IMG/VR virus record: IMGVR_UViG_3300034062_005355 | Source: a virus | Lineage: Duplodnaviria; Caudoviricetes | Reading direction: 5' to 3' (one strand) | Length of the DNA: 64,000 nt | In this document: piece after piece, positions 40,469 to 48,895 of the stretch | Numbering within the stretch: the first letter of the stretch is position 1 | Layout: every line of letters begins with the position of its first letter | Notes under the pieces: generated by a model | Told to the model about the DNA's origin: nothing | The model's database searches: none | The model's input: the letters and a program-made list of their open reading frames with translations, nothing else | Translations under genes and position numbers: made by a program

Positions 40469-43400
40469 ATGGAAAAAATAGTTTTAGGTAAGATTATAAA
40501 AAAGATTTTTTTATTATCTGTATTAATATTATCATTAATCGGCGTAACCCAAAAAGAAGTAAATGCTTCTCACGTTGTTGGTTCCGACATATCTTATGTC
40601 TGTACAACCACACCAGGTGTTTATCGTGTTCAGTTTAAGATATATAGAGATTGTCAGGGTGTTCAACTCTGTGCCAATTGTCCCACAAGTTTAAGTCCTT
40701 CTTGTAATATTCCAATTATATTGACAGGTGGATCTGCACCTACAGGTTCAGGTTTACCAACAAGCCCTTGTGCTGGAATTAATTTTGGAACCCAAAATAT
40801 AAATGTGGTTACAGGTGTTAGTGGTTTTGATGTTGTACAACTATGTTCAGGAGAAAAATCCATTTGTACTAATTGTGGGACTAGAACACCTGGTACTTTT
40901 GTTCCTGGTATTGAGGTGTATACATTTGAAGGGAATATTAGTTTAGCATCTATTCCGGCTAGTTGTTGTTTAATCAATATAGGTTATAGTATCTGTTGTA
41001 GAAATGATGCTATAACTACTTTAGTAAATCCTGGCGCTTTAAATTTTTATACTCAAGGTACAATTAATAGGTGTGTAACACCTTGTAATTCTTCTCCAAC
41101 ATTTACAAATGACCCTGTTGCGGTTACTTGTGCGGGACAAGATTTTACTTACAATTTAGGAGCTATTGACCCTGATGGTGATTCTTTAAGTTATTCTTTT
41201 GGGCAATCACTTACAGGACCTGGTGTTACGGCGCCATATCTTTCACCATACAGTGCCAATGTACCACTACCTTATTTAGGTGCGCCAATTCAAACACCAC
41301 CTGCGGTTCCTCCTATTGGTATCAGCATAGATCCTGTAACTGGAGATCTACGGTTTAGACCGATGGGAACCTTTGTTGCTAATTTAATTATAGAGGTTCG
41401 ACAATGGAAAATGGTAGGAGGAGTACCTACCTTAATGGGTGTAACTCGAAGGGACATTCAGTTTTATAGTAGGATTTGTCCTGAAAATAACCCACCTGTT
41501 TTACGAACATGGACCAATGATGGAGTTTTAACCTCACCACAACCAAACTTTAGTTATTCTGTTTGTGCTGGACAACAATTATGTTTTATGATTTCTGCTT
41601 GGGATAATACCGCAGTTACCGATACTACAGACATTACTTGGAACGCGCCAACATTATTAGTTAGTAAAGGTGCTACATTTGTTAAAGCATATAATCCTAT
41701 TCAAAGAACTATGATTGGACCAAAATATGATAGTGTTCGTTTTTGTTGGACACCTGGTCCTGAAATGGCGAGTAATTTACCTTATTATTTTGTTGTTACC
41801 GCCAAAGATAGGGCGTGTCCTATTCCGGCTCGTACTACAAGATCATTTAGTATTTTAGTTAGAAGGATTCCTATAGCAAATATCATTAAAACCAACAAAA
41901 ATTGTGGCTTCTATGATTTTTCATATACTCAAACAAATGTCGTTCCTATTAACCCTTCGTATACTAAATTCTTAATTGAAACAAGCCCTAATTCTAATAC
42001 TTACCAAACTTTTGTTGGACCTAATGTGATCAATCATAGATTTTTACAAGGTGGTTGGCATAAAATTAGGTTACAGTTAACAACAACTGCACCACCATCA
42101 CCCAATGGTTGTCCTAACGATAATATTTGGGACTCTGTTTTGGTGGTACCTCCTGTTGATGTAAATATTAGGGATACTTTTAATTGTTTTGGAACTTCAG
42201 TTATAGTTAGGGCAAATGGACGAGATGGTACGCCTTTTGGTAGTACTTATCGGTATACTCTATATGGTGGTGGTATGGGTTCAAACAACATTATTAGAAC
42301 TTTTGGTATTGATTCCAATTTTGTAATAAACCCAACAAACCCTGGTGTTAGTAGCTCTTACAAAGTTGTTATTCAGGATTTGAATGGTTGTAAAGACTCA
42401 ACTTTATTAAATGTGTTTACTCGTAATTTACCGATTAAAGAGTTACCAAATTCTGTTCGTTATTGTTTTGGTGCAACTGACACCATAGATGGTGGTAATA
42501 GTAATGGTAGTGTTAATATTTGGCGTTGGAATAAAATTCCTGTATCACCAGTATTGACTGATACTGTATCACAAAAAATTACACCAAGAGATAGTGGTCA
42601 ATATATTGTAAGAAAAACGGATTTAAATGGGTGTTCTCAGTTGGATACTATTATGGTTTATATTAATGAAAGAGTACCTGTTAGTGCTGGTCCTAATCGA
42701 ACTATTTGTGAGAAAGACGCACCAATAAATATAGTTGGTGTTGGTACGACCGCAGCCATAGATAGTTTTCAATGGAGATCGATTCCAATATCAAACCCTG
42801 ATGTTGTTTTAAGTAGAACATCAATTCTAAATGTATCACCATTGATTACAACCAGTTATCAAGTGAGAGGATTTTTAACTTATGGTGGTGTTGGATGTTC
42901 TTATGTTGATACTATGGATGTAATAGTTAAACCATTACCAATAATTAATAGACCTGATAATATGTCTTTGTGTAGAAATACTAACATAGTATTACTACCA
43001 AATATTACTTCTACAAACAAACCTGGATTGATAACATCGGTATGGAATTATCCATCAAACCCAAATGCGATTAATGGTAATCAAGTTATAATATCTAATT
43101 TAATTAATTTACCACCAGTACCACCAACACCTGTAAGAGGAAATATTATTCGTCTTAACGTAAACGATGTTGATGGATGTAGAATAAGTGATTCAATCGT
43201 AATCTCTGTCTTTCCTGTACCATTAATTAACGCAGGATCAAGTAGAAACTTTTGTGATTTTGCTAGTGTGTTTAACATTAACCCAGGTTCCCAACTATAT
43301 TCTCCAAATGGAGGTGCGTTAGCAACTAATGAAGAGTGGTTTGGTCGTGGTATTAATAAACCAAATCCCGCGATTAATTATTATGCATTTAATCCACAAG

Positions 43401-45316
43401 GTGTTGACGTATTAACTTTACCTGACACAAATATTATAACTTATAAATTTACTGCTACATTCCCATTAAATAATAGTGTGTTATTTACACCTGCGGTTAG
43501 TGGTTTTTTCGCACCATCACCAATAGGAGGTTGTTTAGCTACCGATACTTTGGTATTTTCAGTAATAAAAACTCCGAAGTTAGAAACAGGTATTGCACCA
43601 TCTTTATGTAGGTCAGGTACTATTGTCGATATAGATCAACATATGTTAGGTAGAAGTACAACATCTATTAACCCACTAAGTAGTTATTGGTATATTGGAT
43701 CACCTGATCAGATGTATAGGACTTCAATAACTAATGGTAGAAATTTCAACCCATCAAGTCCTATATTAGAAAATTTCACCAGACAGTACAGATTAGTATA
43801 TGCTGACACATCAACAACTTGTAGGGTTGCGGATACAACTACAATTCAAGTTAATGAGAATCCTGTTGTGGATATCGATTATAATATTGTTAGTGATAGT
43901 TCAATTTGTAAAACTCGTGGTAGTGTATTCTTCTTTATGAATCCAAATAACATTTCAAGTGTTGATGGTGAGATGAAAAGTTTTCCAACTTTACCGACCA
44001 CAGCATTTGATGTAACTAATGGTAAATTTACAATCAATAATGTTCCTGATGGGGTTTATAATATTAAATATTATTATAAGGATCCTGGAACGGGATGTGA
44101 TAACAAAGATTCAATAAATATTAGAATACAAAGTCCACCTCAGGTAGATATTGTAGATGATGGATCGGTTTGTTCTTATGATGCCATTTTTAATGTGGGG
44201 TTTAAAACAATACCAAGTTCGCCATATACTTGGAATTGGGTAACACCTGATGGTAACGGGAATATTATTGATAATGGTATAAATGGAATTAACTATACCG
44301 CAACACCATTCGACATTATTCGTGGAAAAGTTACTTTTAAAGTTACAACTATAGATTTAACTACCGATCCCGATATTTGTGGTTCTGTAAGTGATTCTAT
44401 AACTTATACGATTAAACCAAAACCAGTTGCTGATTTTACTATATCACCTGATAGAGGTTGTGTTGATGAGAGATATGGGTTGGTGTTAAATTCAACTTAT
44501 ACTGCGGTTCCAAGTATTGTGGGTAGTACTTATAAGTGGTATATGGATGTTACTGATTTTAATAGTACACCACTTAACTCAAATCCATTTAATCAAACTG
44601 TTTTATCACAAACATTTACTAAATCAGGAAATCACAGGATATATTTGTTTGTTGAGGCTGATGGTTGTAAAGATACTACTGACGCTACATTAACTGCTTG
44701 GCCAACACCAGTTGCGTCATTTACCACGGATCCAAAAAGTACAACAATTGCTAAACCAAATTTTGATTTCTTTAATCAATCAAATATATCCGACAATTCA
44801 AACTTAAAATATATTTGGTATTTTCCACCACTAACTCCTGGTATACCAAGAGTAGATTATACTTTTGAACCAACCCAAGTTCAGTTTATGGCAGATACTG
44901 GTTTACAGTGTATAAAACTAACTGCGATTAGTCCTAACGGTTGTTATGATTCTACACTAGAATGTGTTCGTATTGAGCCAGATATCACGGTGTTTATTCC
45001 AAATGTATTCCGTCCGATTAACGTTGATGGAAAAGGGGGAAGTACGATAGAATGTGGATTTGGATGTAATAGGACTTTCAAAGTAAGTGCTACAGGATTT
45101 GAAACATTAGAAATATTTGTATTTAATCGTTGGGGTCAAAAGGTTTATGAATCATACATGACAGATAAAACGTACAATCCTGAGGAAGGGTGGAATGGAA
45201 GAGACTTTAATAAAGGACAGGATTGTCAACAAGATGCATATATTTACCAAGTAAATGCAACCAGTTTTAACGGTAAAAAATACACATACAGCGGTTCGGT
45301 TACATTATTAAGATAA
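40469..45316 (+). CDS. T9SS type-B (gliding-motility C-terminal domain) surface protein with PKD/Ig-like domains
   Basis: Signal peptide ending NASHVVG; PKD-like PVADFT/PVASFT domains; C-term FIPNVF...IFVFNRWGQKVYE...GWNG...YIYQV...SGSVTLLR. Confidence 0.88.
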   Translation: MEKIVLGKIIKKIFLLSVLILSLIGVTQKEVNASHVVGSDISYVCTTTPGVYRVQFKIYRDCQGVQLCANCPTSLSPSCNIPIILTGGSAPTGSGLPTSPCAGINFGTQNINVVTGVSGFDVVQLCSGEKSICTNCGTRTPGTFVPGIEVYTFEGNISLASIPASCCLINIGYSICCRNDAITTLVNPGALNFYTQGTINRCVTPCNSSPTFTNDPVAVTCAGQDFTYNLGAIDPDGDSLSYSFGQSLTGPGVTAPYLSPYSANVPLPYLGAPIQTPPAVPPIGISIDPVTGDLRFRPMGTFVANLIIEVRQWKMVGGVPTLMGVTRRDIQFYSRICPENNPPVLRTWTNDGVLTSPQPNFSYSVCAGQQLCFMISAWDNTAVTDTTDITWNAPTLLVSKGATFVKAYNPIQRTMIGPKYDSVRFCWTPGPEMASNLPYYFVVTAKDRACPIPARTTRSFSILVRRIPIANIIKTNKNCGFYDFSYTQTNVVPINPSYTKFLIETSPNSNTYQTFVGPNVINHRFLQGGWHKIRLQLTTTAPPSPNGCPNDNIWDSVLVVPPVDVNIRDTFNCFGTSVIVRANGRDGTPFGSTYRYTLYGGGMGSNNIIRTFGIDSNFVINPTNPGVSSSYKVVIQDLNGCKDSTLLNVFTRNLPIKELPNSVRYCFGATDTIDGGNSNGSVNIWRWNKIPVSPVLTDTVSQKITPRDSGQYIVRKTDLNGCSQLDTIMVYINERVPVSAGPNRTICEKDAPINIVGVGTTAAIDSFQWRSIPISNPDVVLSRTSILNVSPLITTSYQVRGFLTYGGVGCSYVDTMDVIVKPLPIINRPDNMSLCRNTNIVLLPNITSTNKPGLITSVWNYPSNPNAINGNQVIISNLINLPPVPPTPVRGNIIRLNVNDVDGCRISDSIVISVFPVPLINAGSSRNFCDFASVFNINPGSQLYSPNGGALATNEEWFGRGINKPNPAINYYAFNPQGVDVLTLPDTNIITYKFTATFPLNNSVLFTPAVSGFFAPSPIGGCLATDTLVFSVIKTPKLETGIAPSLCRSGTIVDIDQHMLGRSTTSINPLSSYWYIGSPDQMYRTSITNGRNFNPSSPILENFTRQYRLVYADTSTTCRVADTTTIQVNENPVVDIDYNIVSDSSICKTRGSVFFFMNPNNISSVDGEMKSFPTLPTTAFDVTNGKFTINNVPDGVYNIKYYYKDPGTGCDNKDSINIRIQSPPQVDIVDDGSVCSYDAIFNVGFKTIPSSPYTWNWVTPDGNGNIIDNGINGINYTATPFDIIRGKVTFKVTTIDLTTDPDICGSVSDSITYTIKPKPVADFTISPDRGCVDERYGLVLNSTYTAVPSIVGSTYKWYMDVTDFNSTPLNSNPFNQTVLSQTFTKSGNHRIYLFVEADGCKDTTDATLTAWPTPVASFTTDPKSTTIAKPNFDFFNQSNISDNSNLKYIWYFPPLTPGIPRVDYTFEPTQVQFMADTGLQCIKLTAISPNGCYDSTLECVRIEPDITVFIPNVFRPINVDGKGGSTIECGFGCNRTFKVSATGFETLEIFVFNRWGQKVYESYMTDKTYNPEEGWNGRDFNKGQDCQQDAYIYQVNATSFNGKKYTYSGSVTLLR

Positions 45317-47073: not shown

Positions 47074-47305
47074 TTGACTTTTGGATATTGTAGACTATAT
47101 TTATAATCTCAAGTCCGAAAGGACAAACATCCCCACAAATATAGTTTCGTAAAATAAAATTTGACAAAATGAGAATTTTGTTTTAATTTTGTGAAACAAA
47201 TGAGATGAGAGTCTCACAAAAAAGTCCCACATATGTTTGATTATTTGAAAAAATAGTTTTAACTTTGTGGGACTTAAATTGAAAGTTCTTTTACTTAAGA
47301 TATAT

Positions 47306-47378
<73 letters not shown>

Positions 47379-47389
47379 CAAAAAAAAAC

Positions 47390-47554
47390 TTCACAAAAAG
47401 TTTGACAAATTAAAAAGTTTATCTTACCTTTGTGAAACATTTAACAATCACCGAATTCAAATCTCACTATCGGTAATTAATAGAGTTAGGTTGTTAAAAA
47501 AACTTTCACAAAAAGTTTGATAAATTGAAAAGTTTATCTTACCTTTGTGAAACA
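47390..47554 (+). repeat. 50-nt direct repeat (47390-47439 and 47505-47554)
   Basis: TTCACAAAAAGTTTGA(C/T)AAATT(A/G)AAAAGTTTATCTTACCTTTGTGAAACA; 2 mismatches. Confidence 0.9.
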
Positions 47555-47599
47555 ATCACGAAAAGGTTGACGTTGTTGTAAAACTATGGTTTCCTTTTC

Positions 47600-48505
47600 T
47601 AAAATTGAAATTCGTTCTTTGAATATAAAATATTTATCCGTTCAGTAGTTTATTATGAGACCTTCGGGTTGATTATGAGACATTTAATCTGATAAAGGTA
47701 ATCGGCCGTATATGGTCGTTAAATAAACCATGAAAGTGGGATAAAGTGAACCTGTTGTGTTAACAGGATTGCGGCTTCGGTAACGGAGCTCGAGTATACA
47801 GGCGAGATATCATCTTTGCTTTAGTAATCGAGGGTAACACTGTAGATGAAGAGTTGAGATGACCAAGCGATGTGGGTCGTTTGGTTGAGATGGGAACATC
47901 AATAAGAATAACTCGTAGGGATATTGTAAAAAGTGAGACCTCCAATCTCATCATTGCGAATTCCAATACGAAAGTGGACTTAAAACCGAAAGGTATGATA
48001 GAGTACAGGTGGTGCTGTTACTATCCCTACTTTGAATCTACCAAGGTTCTTAGTTTGAAGTAAACTTGACATATGGAGGTGGGGACATCTCAGGGAGTAG
48101 TTTAGTATTCTGTTGTTCAAAAGATAACGGAGCTTACGGTGGACCACTACTTCTATCATCCACGACACAAACCTTAATATACATATGTTAATGTAATAAT
48201 TAATTAAAATATCAAGCACAAGTGTCCATCAGGTTTTGATGAAAGTCGCCTACATAGTCATGGGTTGTCCATGGCACACTGAGACTGCAAGTTGATGTGT
48301 ATTTTTACCAAAAACCTCTAAGGGGTCGAACCCTGAGTTAGCTCGCAAGGTTAAAGAGAGTTGAGTAATGAAAGAGTAGTTAAAACCTTTAGGAGTGATT
48401 GGTCTAACCAATCGGCGATGAGGATTACATCCCAAAAGGATGTGGATATAAAGGGAACTAATAATCCTTTTAAAGATTCTCAATAATAGGTGTAATCTCA
48501 ACCTT
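47600..48505 (+). ncRNA. large structured ncRNA, GOLLD-like
   Basis: No credible ORF over ~0.9 kb; raised GC; many G-U-containing stems with GNRA/UUCG loops; follows a tRNA and strong promoters; ends before a terminator; 5' boundary approximate. Confidence 0.7.
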
Positions 48506-48515
48506 TTTAGCCACT

Positions 48516-48549
48516 AAACCTCATCTGTTAATTCAGGTGGGGTTTTTTT
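48516..48549 (+). terminator. intrinsic terminator of the tRNA/ncRNA unit
   Basis: AAACCTCATCTG-TTAATT-CAGGTGGGGTTT plus T run. Confidence 0.8.
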
Positions 48550-48613
48550 ATTTAAAAATAATTTGGTTTGTTATAATAATTTCAATATCTTTGTATTGTT
48601 AATAAGAAAGAAT

Positions 48614-48895
48614 ATGAACACAATATCACATAACATTAAAATTCAGCATGAAACATTTGGTGTATTATTAGATGAAACATTTGTAAATGCCACCCAATTT
48701 AAGTTGTTCTTAAAAATGATACAAGGTTGTATTGAGTTAAAGAATGATTTAACTTTCTTTAATGGTTATGATTTTCTTATTCACATTCCTTACAAACATT
48801 TGGTTAGTTCAATTATCACAACAAAAATAGATATATATACGTTAGCAGAGCATTTGGTTGCCAAATCTAAAATGGAGGCATTAGAAACAAAATGA
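48614..48895 (+). CDS. hypothetical protein
   Basis: ATG at 48614 behind a TATCTTTG promoter. Confidence 0.75.
   Translation: MNTISHNIKIQHETFGVLLDETFVNATQFKLFLKMIQGCIELKNDLTFFNGYDFLIHIPYKHLVSSIITTKIDIYTLAEHLVAKSKMEALETK

Follow-up and report, generated by a model that had tools for sequence, protein, structure and literature searches.

The window analysed here is a stretch of 64,000 nucleotides from the IMG/VR virus record IMGVR_UViG_3300034062_005355 (Duplodnaviria; Caudoviricetes). The complete record comprises 79,459 bp and is rated 27% complete by CheckV. Since 79 kb correspond to 27% of the genome, a genome of ~290 kb is implied, and the contigs on which relatives are located reach 304 kb. 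The phage setting that had been proposed in the first-pass annotation, a model's reading of the sequence, is thus well founded. A PHROG search with 20 neighbouring or large ORFs identified a NUDIX hydrolase, a metallophosphoesterase and an SbcC-like protein. Most of the other neighbouring ORFs in this search are without a PHROG family, including an ORF of 1615 amino acids (40469–45316) that is located just upstream of the RNA cluster. The cluster itself contains the following features, with positions given in window coordinates.

47140–47198, plus strand: promoter module 1, a 59-nt copy.
47216–47274, plus strand: promoter module 2, ahead of the tRNA (TTTG at 47236, TAacTTTG at 47267).
47285–47293, plus strand: degenerate boxA-like element GTTCTTTTA preceding the tRNA; in L073, the nearest relative, it is an exact GTTCTTTGA.
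47306–47379, plus strand: tRNA-Met (CAT) of the initiator type, identified by ARAGORN, by the Rfam tRNA model and by reading of the sequence.
47381–47439, plus strand: promoter module 3, next to a 64-nt hairpin spacer (47437–47500).
47496–47554, plus strand: promoter module 4, the predicted proximal promoter of the GOLLD RNA (−33 box TTTG at 47516–47519; −7 box TAccTTTG at 47540–47547).
47560–47599, plus strand: leader hairpin GAAAAGG ... CCTTTTC at the position of boxB in rrn leaders; a hairpin is found there in most related loci.
47614–47624, plus strand: boxA-like element GTTCTTTGAAT, with a conserved TTATCC downstream (47634–47639).
47642–47692, plus strand: variable hairpin of the leader, with TCAG/CTGA at its base and ACC-UUCG-GGU (47660–47669) as its cap; neither the conserved core nor the env-38 construct includes it.
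47699–48092, plus strand: GOLLD 5' domain (cap domain), 41% GC, recognized by conservation, covariation and collinearity with env-38.
48093–48504, plus strand: GOLLD 3' domain, an end-to-end match to RF02032.
48160–48218, plus strand: internal linker, AT-rich (24% GC) and poorly conserved (column identity 0.42–0.57, with gaps).
48516–48552, plus strand: intrinsic terminator with a 12-bp stem and U7 (48516–48545 and the T-run; −16.3 kcal/mol, z = −4.4).

When the complete window was compared with Rfam 15, two families matched, a tRNA (47309–47374) and GOLLD. The match to the GOLLD model RF02032 extends over 48093–48504 on the plus strand and covers the complete model (1–416 of 416) with 321.2 bits (E = 3.5e-91), about twice the gathering threshold of 150 bits. 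The alignment takes in the long-range pairing as well as the hairpins and contains few non-canonical pairs. Three stems that had been picked out by eye, GATTGGT-CTA-ACCAATC, ACATCC-CAAAA-GGATGT and AGGT-GTAATCTCA-ACCT, are hairpins of this model. Models for ROOL, group I introns, RNase P and tmRNA did not reach their gathering scores anywhere in the window, so that a reclassification into one of the latter three, considered in the first-pass annotation, does not apply. The Rfam scan proposed there therefore gave the expected family, with the full model and above threshold. At 47080–48120 no family besides tRNA and GOLLD was found even at E ≤ 1, and the 5' half of the RNA yielded nothing.

For the 5' half, a comparison with a solved structure is available. 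The env-38 GOLLD, an RNA of 833 nt encoded downstream of a Met-tRNA, was determined by cryo-EM as a 14-mer with D7 symmetry (PDB entry 9MEE; Kretsch et al. 2025, PMC12286853). Its construct (PMC12286853 supplement) begins with ATGGCCGCTATGGTCGTCAAATAAA...GGATAAAGTG and was aligned by eye with the window from ~47701. Judged in this way, the two RNAs are collinear in both domains through to the 3' hairpin. They have the same 5' start (~47701 in the window) and share the long strings GGATAAAGTG, CAATAAGAATAACTC, GGTGGTGC and GTATTCTGT.GTTCAAAAG, an AT-rich linker and the place downstream of a tRNA-Met, together with a pair of neighbouring hairpins at the presumed P21a/P21b, which are matched by position only. 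They differ in length and in one arm: the window copy is ~28 nt shorter, and its GAAA-capped arm (47985–47994), like that of most lake relatives, is ~17 nt shorter than in env-38. The GOLLD copy described here is an ordinary member of the family, closely similar to the solved env-38 copy.

The membership in GOLLD proposed in the first-pass annotation thus stands on the score of 321 bits against a threshold of 150 and on the collinearity of the 5' half with the 5' domain of env-38. The same two observations exclude the second option offered there, a new giant RNA class. In favour of a class distinct from GOLLD, 47600–48092 lies outside the Rfam model and the 5' half is without a database match. 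However, the 3' half matches the model from end to end with double the gathering score, the 5' half follows the GOLLD 5' domain of env-38, and the Rfam model represents the universally conserved 3' region only (PMC12286853; GOLLD passages of PMC12990946). We consider a class new and distinct from GOLLD to be practically out of the question.

The extent of the RNA follows from its relatives. With an exact GOLLD motif taken from the window copy, 78 IMG/VR contigs were found, nearly all of which align to 47613/47699–48508 at 71–91% identity. In an alignment of 51 sequences, column identity rises from ~0.45 to 0.83 at 47699, remains high up to 48505 except in the linker (48160–48218) and falls thereafter. 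The conserved RNA is accordingly ~805 nt long (47699–48505), and its 5' half (47699–48092) is conserved in ~50 lake-phage contigs. The interval 47600–48505, which had been given for the RNA originally, does contain a structured RNA; its conserved part begins at ~47699–47701 and the first ~100 nt belong to a leader. The hairpin ACC-TTCG-GGT (47660), likewise listed as part of the RNA, is real, but it is situated in the variable leader and outside the conserved core. The GOLLD family (RF02032) itself reportedly goes back to Weinberg et al. 2009. The copy in the window shares with it the phage-borne and tRNA-adjacent location, the origin from lake water, the length of ~800 nt and a conserved 3' half next to a more variable 5' half. 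No difference of substance was found; within the subgroup of the window, the 5' half is well conserved (71–91% in ~50 contigs).

Covariation among homologues, named in the first-pass annotation as a check, supports the fold of the 5' domain. For 41 non-redundant 5' halves, the consensus fold comprises 100 base pairs, 73 of which show compensatory changes, and 96.9% of the cells in these pairs are paired. Shuffling of columns gave 46 covarying pairs on average and at most 52, and moving the 3' partners by 1–3 columns gave 23–34. The stems CCAT-GAAA-GTGG (47728), GCTTCG-GTAA-CGGAGC (47774) and ACCAAGCGA/TCGTTTGGT (47862–47885), all noticed before any comparison, are part of this fold and carry compensatory changes. 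The stem ACC-GAAA-GGT (47985) is part of it as well, with compensatory changes in only 2 of the 41 sequences. Altogether, every stem listed earlier within 47699–48505 recurs either in the 5' consensus fold or in the Rfam alignment.

The same stretch had been described as free of ORFs and enriched in GC, and both properties were recovered. The GC content is 39.4% at 47699–48505 compared to 31.4% for the whole window. The longest open frame in the stretch has 85 codons. Because the longest frame switches strand and phase among 50 homologues, there is no conserved ORF in the RNA stretch. ORFs of 63–83 amino acids are present on both strands, and one could imagine that the stretch codes for small proteins, for example by the minus-strand ORFs of 83 or 79 amino acids, instead of an RNA. 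This is hardly conceivable in view of the inconstant longest frame and of the fact that base pairing is what the substitutions preserve.

Relatives of the RNA were also encountered in environmental sequencing runs. Fourteen DNA runs from lakes and freshwater contain 88–96% of the sampled words of the stretch, and six lake metatranscriptomes contain 26–28%. In four lake metatranscriptomes, contigs with 90–99% identity extend over 47694–48449 at a word depth of hundreds to thousands. This comparison is based on assembled contigs of mixed relatives, mapped on 47100–48700, so that ends, strand and level are not readable from them. In the same four runs, the depth of these mixed-relative contigs was modest for the tRNA, 0–60 for the leader and zero for the flanking genes, and no contig covered 48450–48505. 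These contigs show that RNAs of the window type are abundant in lake RNA libraries. In one contig, an Illumina adapter is joined directly to 47701, which is the start of env-38. Because the contigs mix relatives, neither the lower depth of the leader compared to the core nor the apparent 5' end amounts to more than a weak hint at a trimming of the leader near 47700.

Two of the contigs (47891–48264 and 47924–48284) bridge the boundary between the 5' and the 3' domain. This observation bears on the question of whether the locus might encode two independent RNAs, a 5' RNA of ~400 nt (47699–48092) and, behind it, a separate GOLLD 3' domain. The halves are indeed separate domains in the solved structure (PMC12286853), and the 3' domain is able to oligomerise alone (PMC12286853; GOLLD passages of PMC12990946). 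Against a division speak, besides the bridging contigs, the single 833-nt chain of env-38 (PMC12286853) and the region between the halves, which contains neither a promoter module nor a terminator. Moreover, the halves are conserved together at a constant total length, which is 789–831 nt in the relatives, reaches 849 nt in one megaphage and is 805 nt in the window copy. Two separate RNAs are therefore very improbable. We are confident that 47699–48505 on the plus strand encodes one full-length GOLLD RNA of ~805 nt from an uncultured, large-genome freshwater phage.

The cage of env-38 is 380 Å across; its caps are formed by the 5' domains and its rings by the 3' domains, and a disordered linker is located inside (PMC12286853). 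The linker at 48160–48218 corresponds to this disordered linker facing the interior of the cage, and ARAGORN did not detect a tRNA within it. A second solved member, the GOLLD of Streptococcus agalactiae, is described in the GOLLD passages of a 2026 review (PMC12990946). According to these passages, it has 700 nt and was solved as a dodecamer (PDB entry 9L0R), with a decamer of the 3' domain (9LMF). It is without P9, P11a–c and P21b and forms 10- to 12-mers. The same passages indicate that it belongs to the same family and that the architecture of the 3' domain (P14–P27) is shared. The window copy, in which both presumed P21a/P21b hairpins are present, belongs to the longer env-38 type. Furthermore, the S. 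agalactiae RNA is located in a Firmicutes chromosome or prophage, in contrast to the window copy in a lake phage with Bacteroidota-type signals. ROOL RNAs (~600 nt, octameric or hexameric cages) are comparable as large, ornate, phage- and tRNA-linked RNAs which form RNA-only cages (PMC12286853; PMC12990946). They are unrelated in sequence and fold. ROOL models stay below gathering score in the window, and in the 5' half none appears at a cutoff as loose as E ≤ 1.

Given its homology to env-38 and the S. agalactiae GOLLD, the window RNA would assemble without protein into a closed homo-oligomeric cage, which we regard as likely. The 5' domains would form the caps and the 3' domains the rings, with the AT-rich linker pointing inward. 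The stoichiometry of GOLLD varies with elements such as a short arm, as stated in the GOLLD passages of PMC12990946. Since the window copy resembles env-38 but has a shorter GAAA-capped arm (47985–47994), the exact stoichiometry is less certain than the cage as such, and for a 14-mer specifically the prospects appear even or slightly better than that.

The two adjacent hairpins of the 3' domain (48319–48334 and 48338–48354) are the presumed P21a and P21b, an assignment made by position only. The loop of the first (48325–48330), a further point of difference from env-38, reads GUCGAA in the window copy and includes the self-complementary UCGA, in contrast to GCAA in most lake relatives. GUCGAA occupies the first hairpin of the pair (48319–48354) in the window phage and ~9 relatives; most other relatives have GCAA in the first and GGCA in the second hairpin. 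This paired switching of loop types is as expected if the hairpins are engaged in intermolecular kissing contacts.

The tRNA gene lies 320 nt upstream of the GOLLD RNA on the same strand. Bacterial initiator tRNAs are marked by a mismatch of the type C1xA72 and by an anticodon stem with three G:C pairs at its bottom. Because the tRNA-Met of the window has the C1xA72 mismatch and G29–31:C39–41 (GGG/CCC) in its anticodon stem, it is of the initiator type, in agreement with the tRNA-fMet (CAT) first annotated at this position. A tRNA-Met (CAT) on the same strand adjoins GOLLD in 29 of 59 copies (the window and 58 related loci), upstream in 13 and downstream in 16. In the 16 downstream cases, which include L051, L043, L075, L060 and L052, it follows the 3' hairpin of GOLLD after 10–19 nt; in the window, the terminator is found at this place. 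A linkage specific to the initiator is not claimed, as the tRNA-Met of many relatives lacks the full GGG/CCC and the read-out of position 1:72 is unreliable at ARAGORN boundaries.

Four modules of 59 nt (starting at 47140, 47216, 47381 and 47496), each with the pattern TTTG-N20-TAnnTTTG, are placed within 415 nt around the tRNA. In the whole window this pattern was counted 18 times compared to 5.4 expected by chance. The modules are 64–93% identical to the reference copy and would drive, in order, almost nothing, the tRNA-fMet, the 64-nt spacer and GOLLD. Between phages, they are far better conserved than the spacers between them. Together with the strong terminator at 48516–48552, these Bacteroidota-type modules upstream substantiate the earlier reading of a stretch bracketed by promoters and a terminator. 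From the −7 box of module 4, a transcription start near 47552 is inferred. The 64-nt unit between modules 3 and 4 (47437–47500) was also considered as a conserved RNA. It forms a hairpin (−10.3 kcal/mol, z = −2.1) followed by an A-run and no terminator, and the site is occupied by unrelated sequence of 60–90 nt in the relatives. With a fold only modestly better than that of shuffled sequences and this lack of relatedness, the candidate was rejected.

Between the proximal promoter and the RNA lies the leader with its boxA-like element. Of 52 related loci, 48 have an exact GTTCTTTGA at a distance of 96–151 nt before the core anchor, and three more have it with one change or at a shifted place. 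A search of the literature for a boxA consensus of Bacteroidota gave none, and 16S upstream regions were scanned directly. For this purpose, 120 metagenomic contigs with a Bacteroidota-type 16S 5' end (L083–L202), selected by a 16S signature which we take to be specific to Bacteroidota, were reduced to 100 unique upstream regions. In 45 of these, GTTCTTTGA is found upstream of the 16S gene, 44 times at a distance of 78–172 nt and once at 293 nt; on the reverse strand it does not occur. The wider boxA-like pattern GTTC[TA]TTGA is present in 64 of the 100 regions (opposite strand, 0). As for the promoter, TAnnTTTG is present in 95 (opposite strand, 17), and both boxes together in 59 (opposite strand, 1). 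From the counts in related loci and in 16S regions it follows that the phage shares its promoter type and leader element with the rrn operons of Bacteroidota. As regards the 16S leaders themselves, they fall into at least two variants of boxA, with GTTCATTGA in about 17 of the 55 regions without GTTCTTTGA. Neither variant is present in 36 of the 100, which counts against the boxA reading.

In E. coli, boxA is bound by NusB-S10, and the Nus complex acts in rrn antitermination and in the folding of rRNA (PMC10931766). The leader of an rrn operon (promoters, boxB-boxA-boxC, NusB/NusE; PMC10931766) and the phage leader share the succession of promoter, hairpin, GTTCTTTGAA element and large structured RNA, and the identical 9-mer stands at a similar distance upstream of the Bacteroidota-type 16S. 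The phage leader, however, precedes a non-coding RNA of the phage and not rRNA, and the likeness is one of sequence and position. Sequence identity and position are also what the reading of GTTCTTTGAAT as a boxA is based on.

Taken as a model, these features suggest the following course of expression. Host RNA polymerase would start at the Bacteroidota-type promoter with the −7 box at 47540–47547 and transcribe an rrn-like leader with the hairpin and the boxA-like GTTCTTTGAAT. This leader would, as we are slightly inclined to believe, recruit antitermination factors of the NusB/NusE type as at rRNA operons. The ~145-nt leader would be trimmed off near 47700, and transcription would stop at the terminator (48516–48552). 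The chances that the phage in this way makes GOLLD and the initiator tRNA by means of the rRNA transcription system of its host, with tandem rrn-type promoters and a Nus-loading boxA leader, seem to us evenly balanced. If this were true, the cage RNA would be produced at rRNA-like rates and would be folded co-transcriptionally by the same chaperone-like complex, and the function of GOLLD would be tied to the circuitry of growth-rate and translation control in the host. In the literature covered, the GOLLD passages of PMC12990946, a link between GOLLD and boxA or antitermination was not found.

We infer a Bacteroidota host from the promoter type and from the rrn-type leader, both common upstream of Bacteroidota-type 16S genes. 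A scan of 185,579 species genomes with the GOLLD motif gave a single match (L082), located on a 9.8-kb contig (JAAHHL010000174.1) of a Caldora sp. (cyanobacterial) MAG. This is probably a phage contig that was binned into the cyanobacterial MAG. With this contig as its sole match, the scan is uninformative on the host.

With respect to function, the recurrent same-strand linkage to tRNA-Met and the rRNA-style expression lead us to a tentative best guess, namely a translation-linked role in infection such as the holding or shielding of tRNA or ribosome-related cargo. A cage without any link to translation seems rather unlikely to us. It might titrate host factors as a sponge or decoy, for example Nus factors, RNA-binding defence proteins or nucleases, or serve purely as a structural scaffold of condensates. 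Such roles would suit an RNA that appears highly abundant, judging from the lake metatranscriptome contigs, and that is multivalent (PMC12286853; GOLLD passages of PMC12990946), and the published discussion names encapsulation, phase separation and other roles as speculation (same sources). On the other hand, no partner in defence or counter-defence was identified at the locus, where the neighbours are a NUDIX hydrolase, a phosphoesterase and unknowns, and the recurrent partner is tRNA-Met. The expression signals may be of practical use: the Bacteroidota rRNA-operon promoter type and the boxA-like element at GOLLD loci offer a testable handle on how the RNA is produced and possibly on why. The abundant close relatives in lake metatranscriptomes constitute natural material for the mapping of RNA ends and for a search for cargo.

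The GOLLD family, its linkage to phages and tRNAs and its cage structure are already published, and the window copy is of the env-38 subtype. Because family and subtype are known, this copy adds little as a GOLLD member. What it does provide is an anchoring of the env-38-type GOLLD in lake phages with large genomes and Bacteroidota-type expression signals, including two megaphages of ~640 kb. In these unannotated megaphages, LR756502.1 (L002, at ~434.6 kb) and LR745206.1 (L003, at ~420.9 kb), the full GOLLD is present with 275 and 287 bits, respectively, and is flanked by tRNAs.
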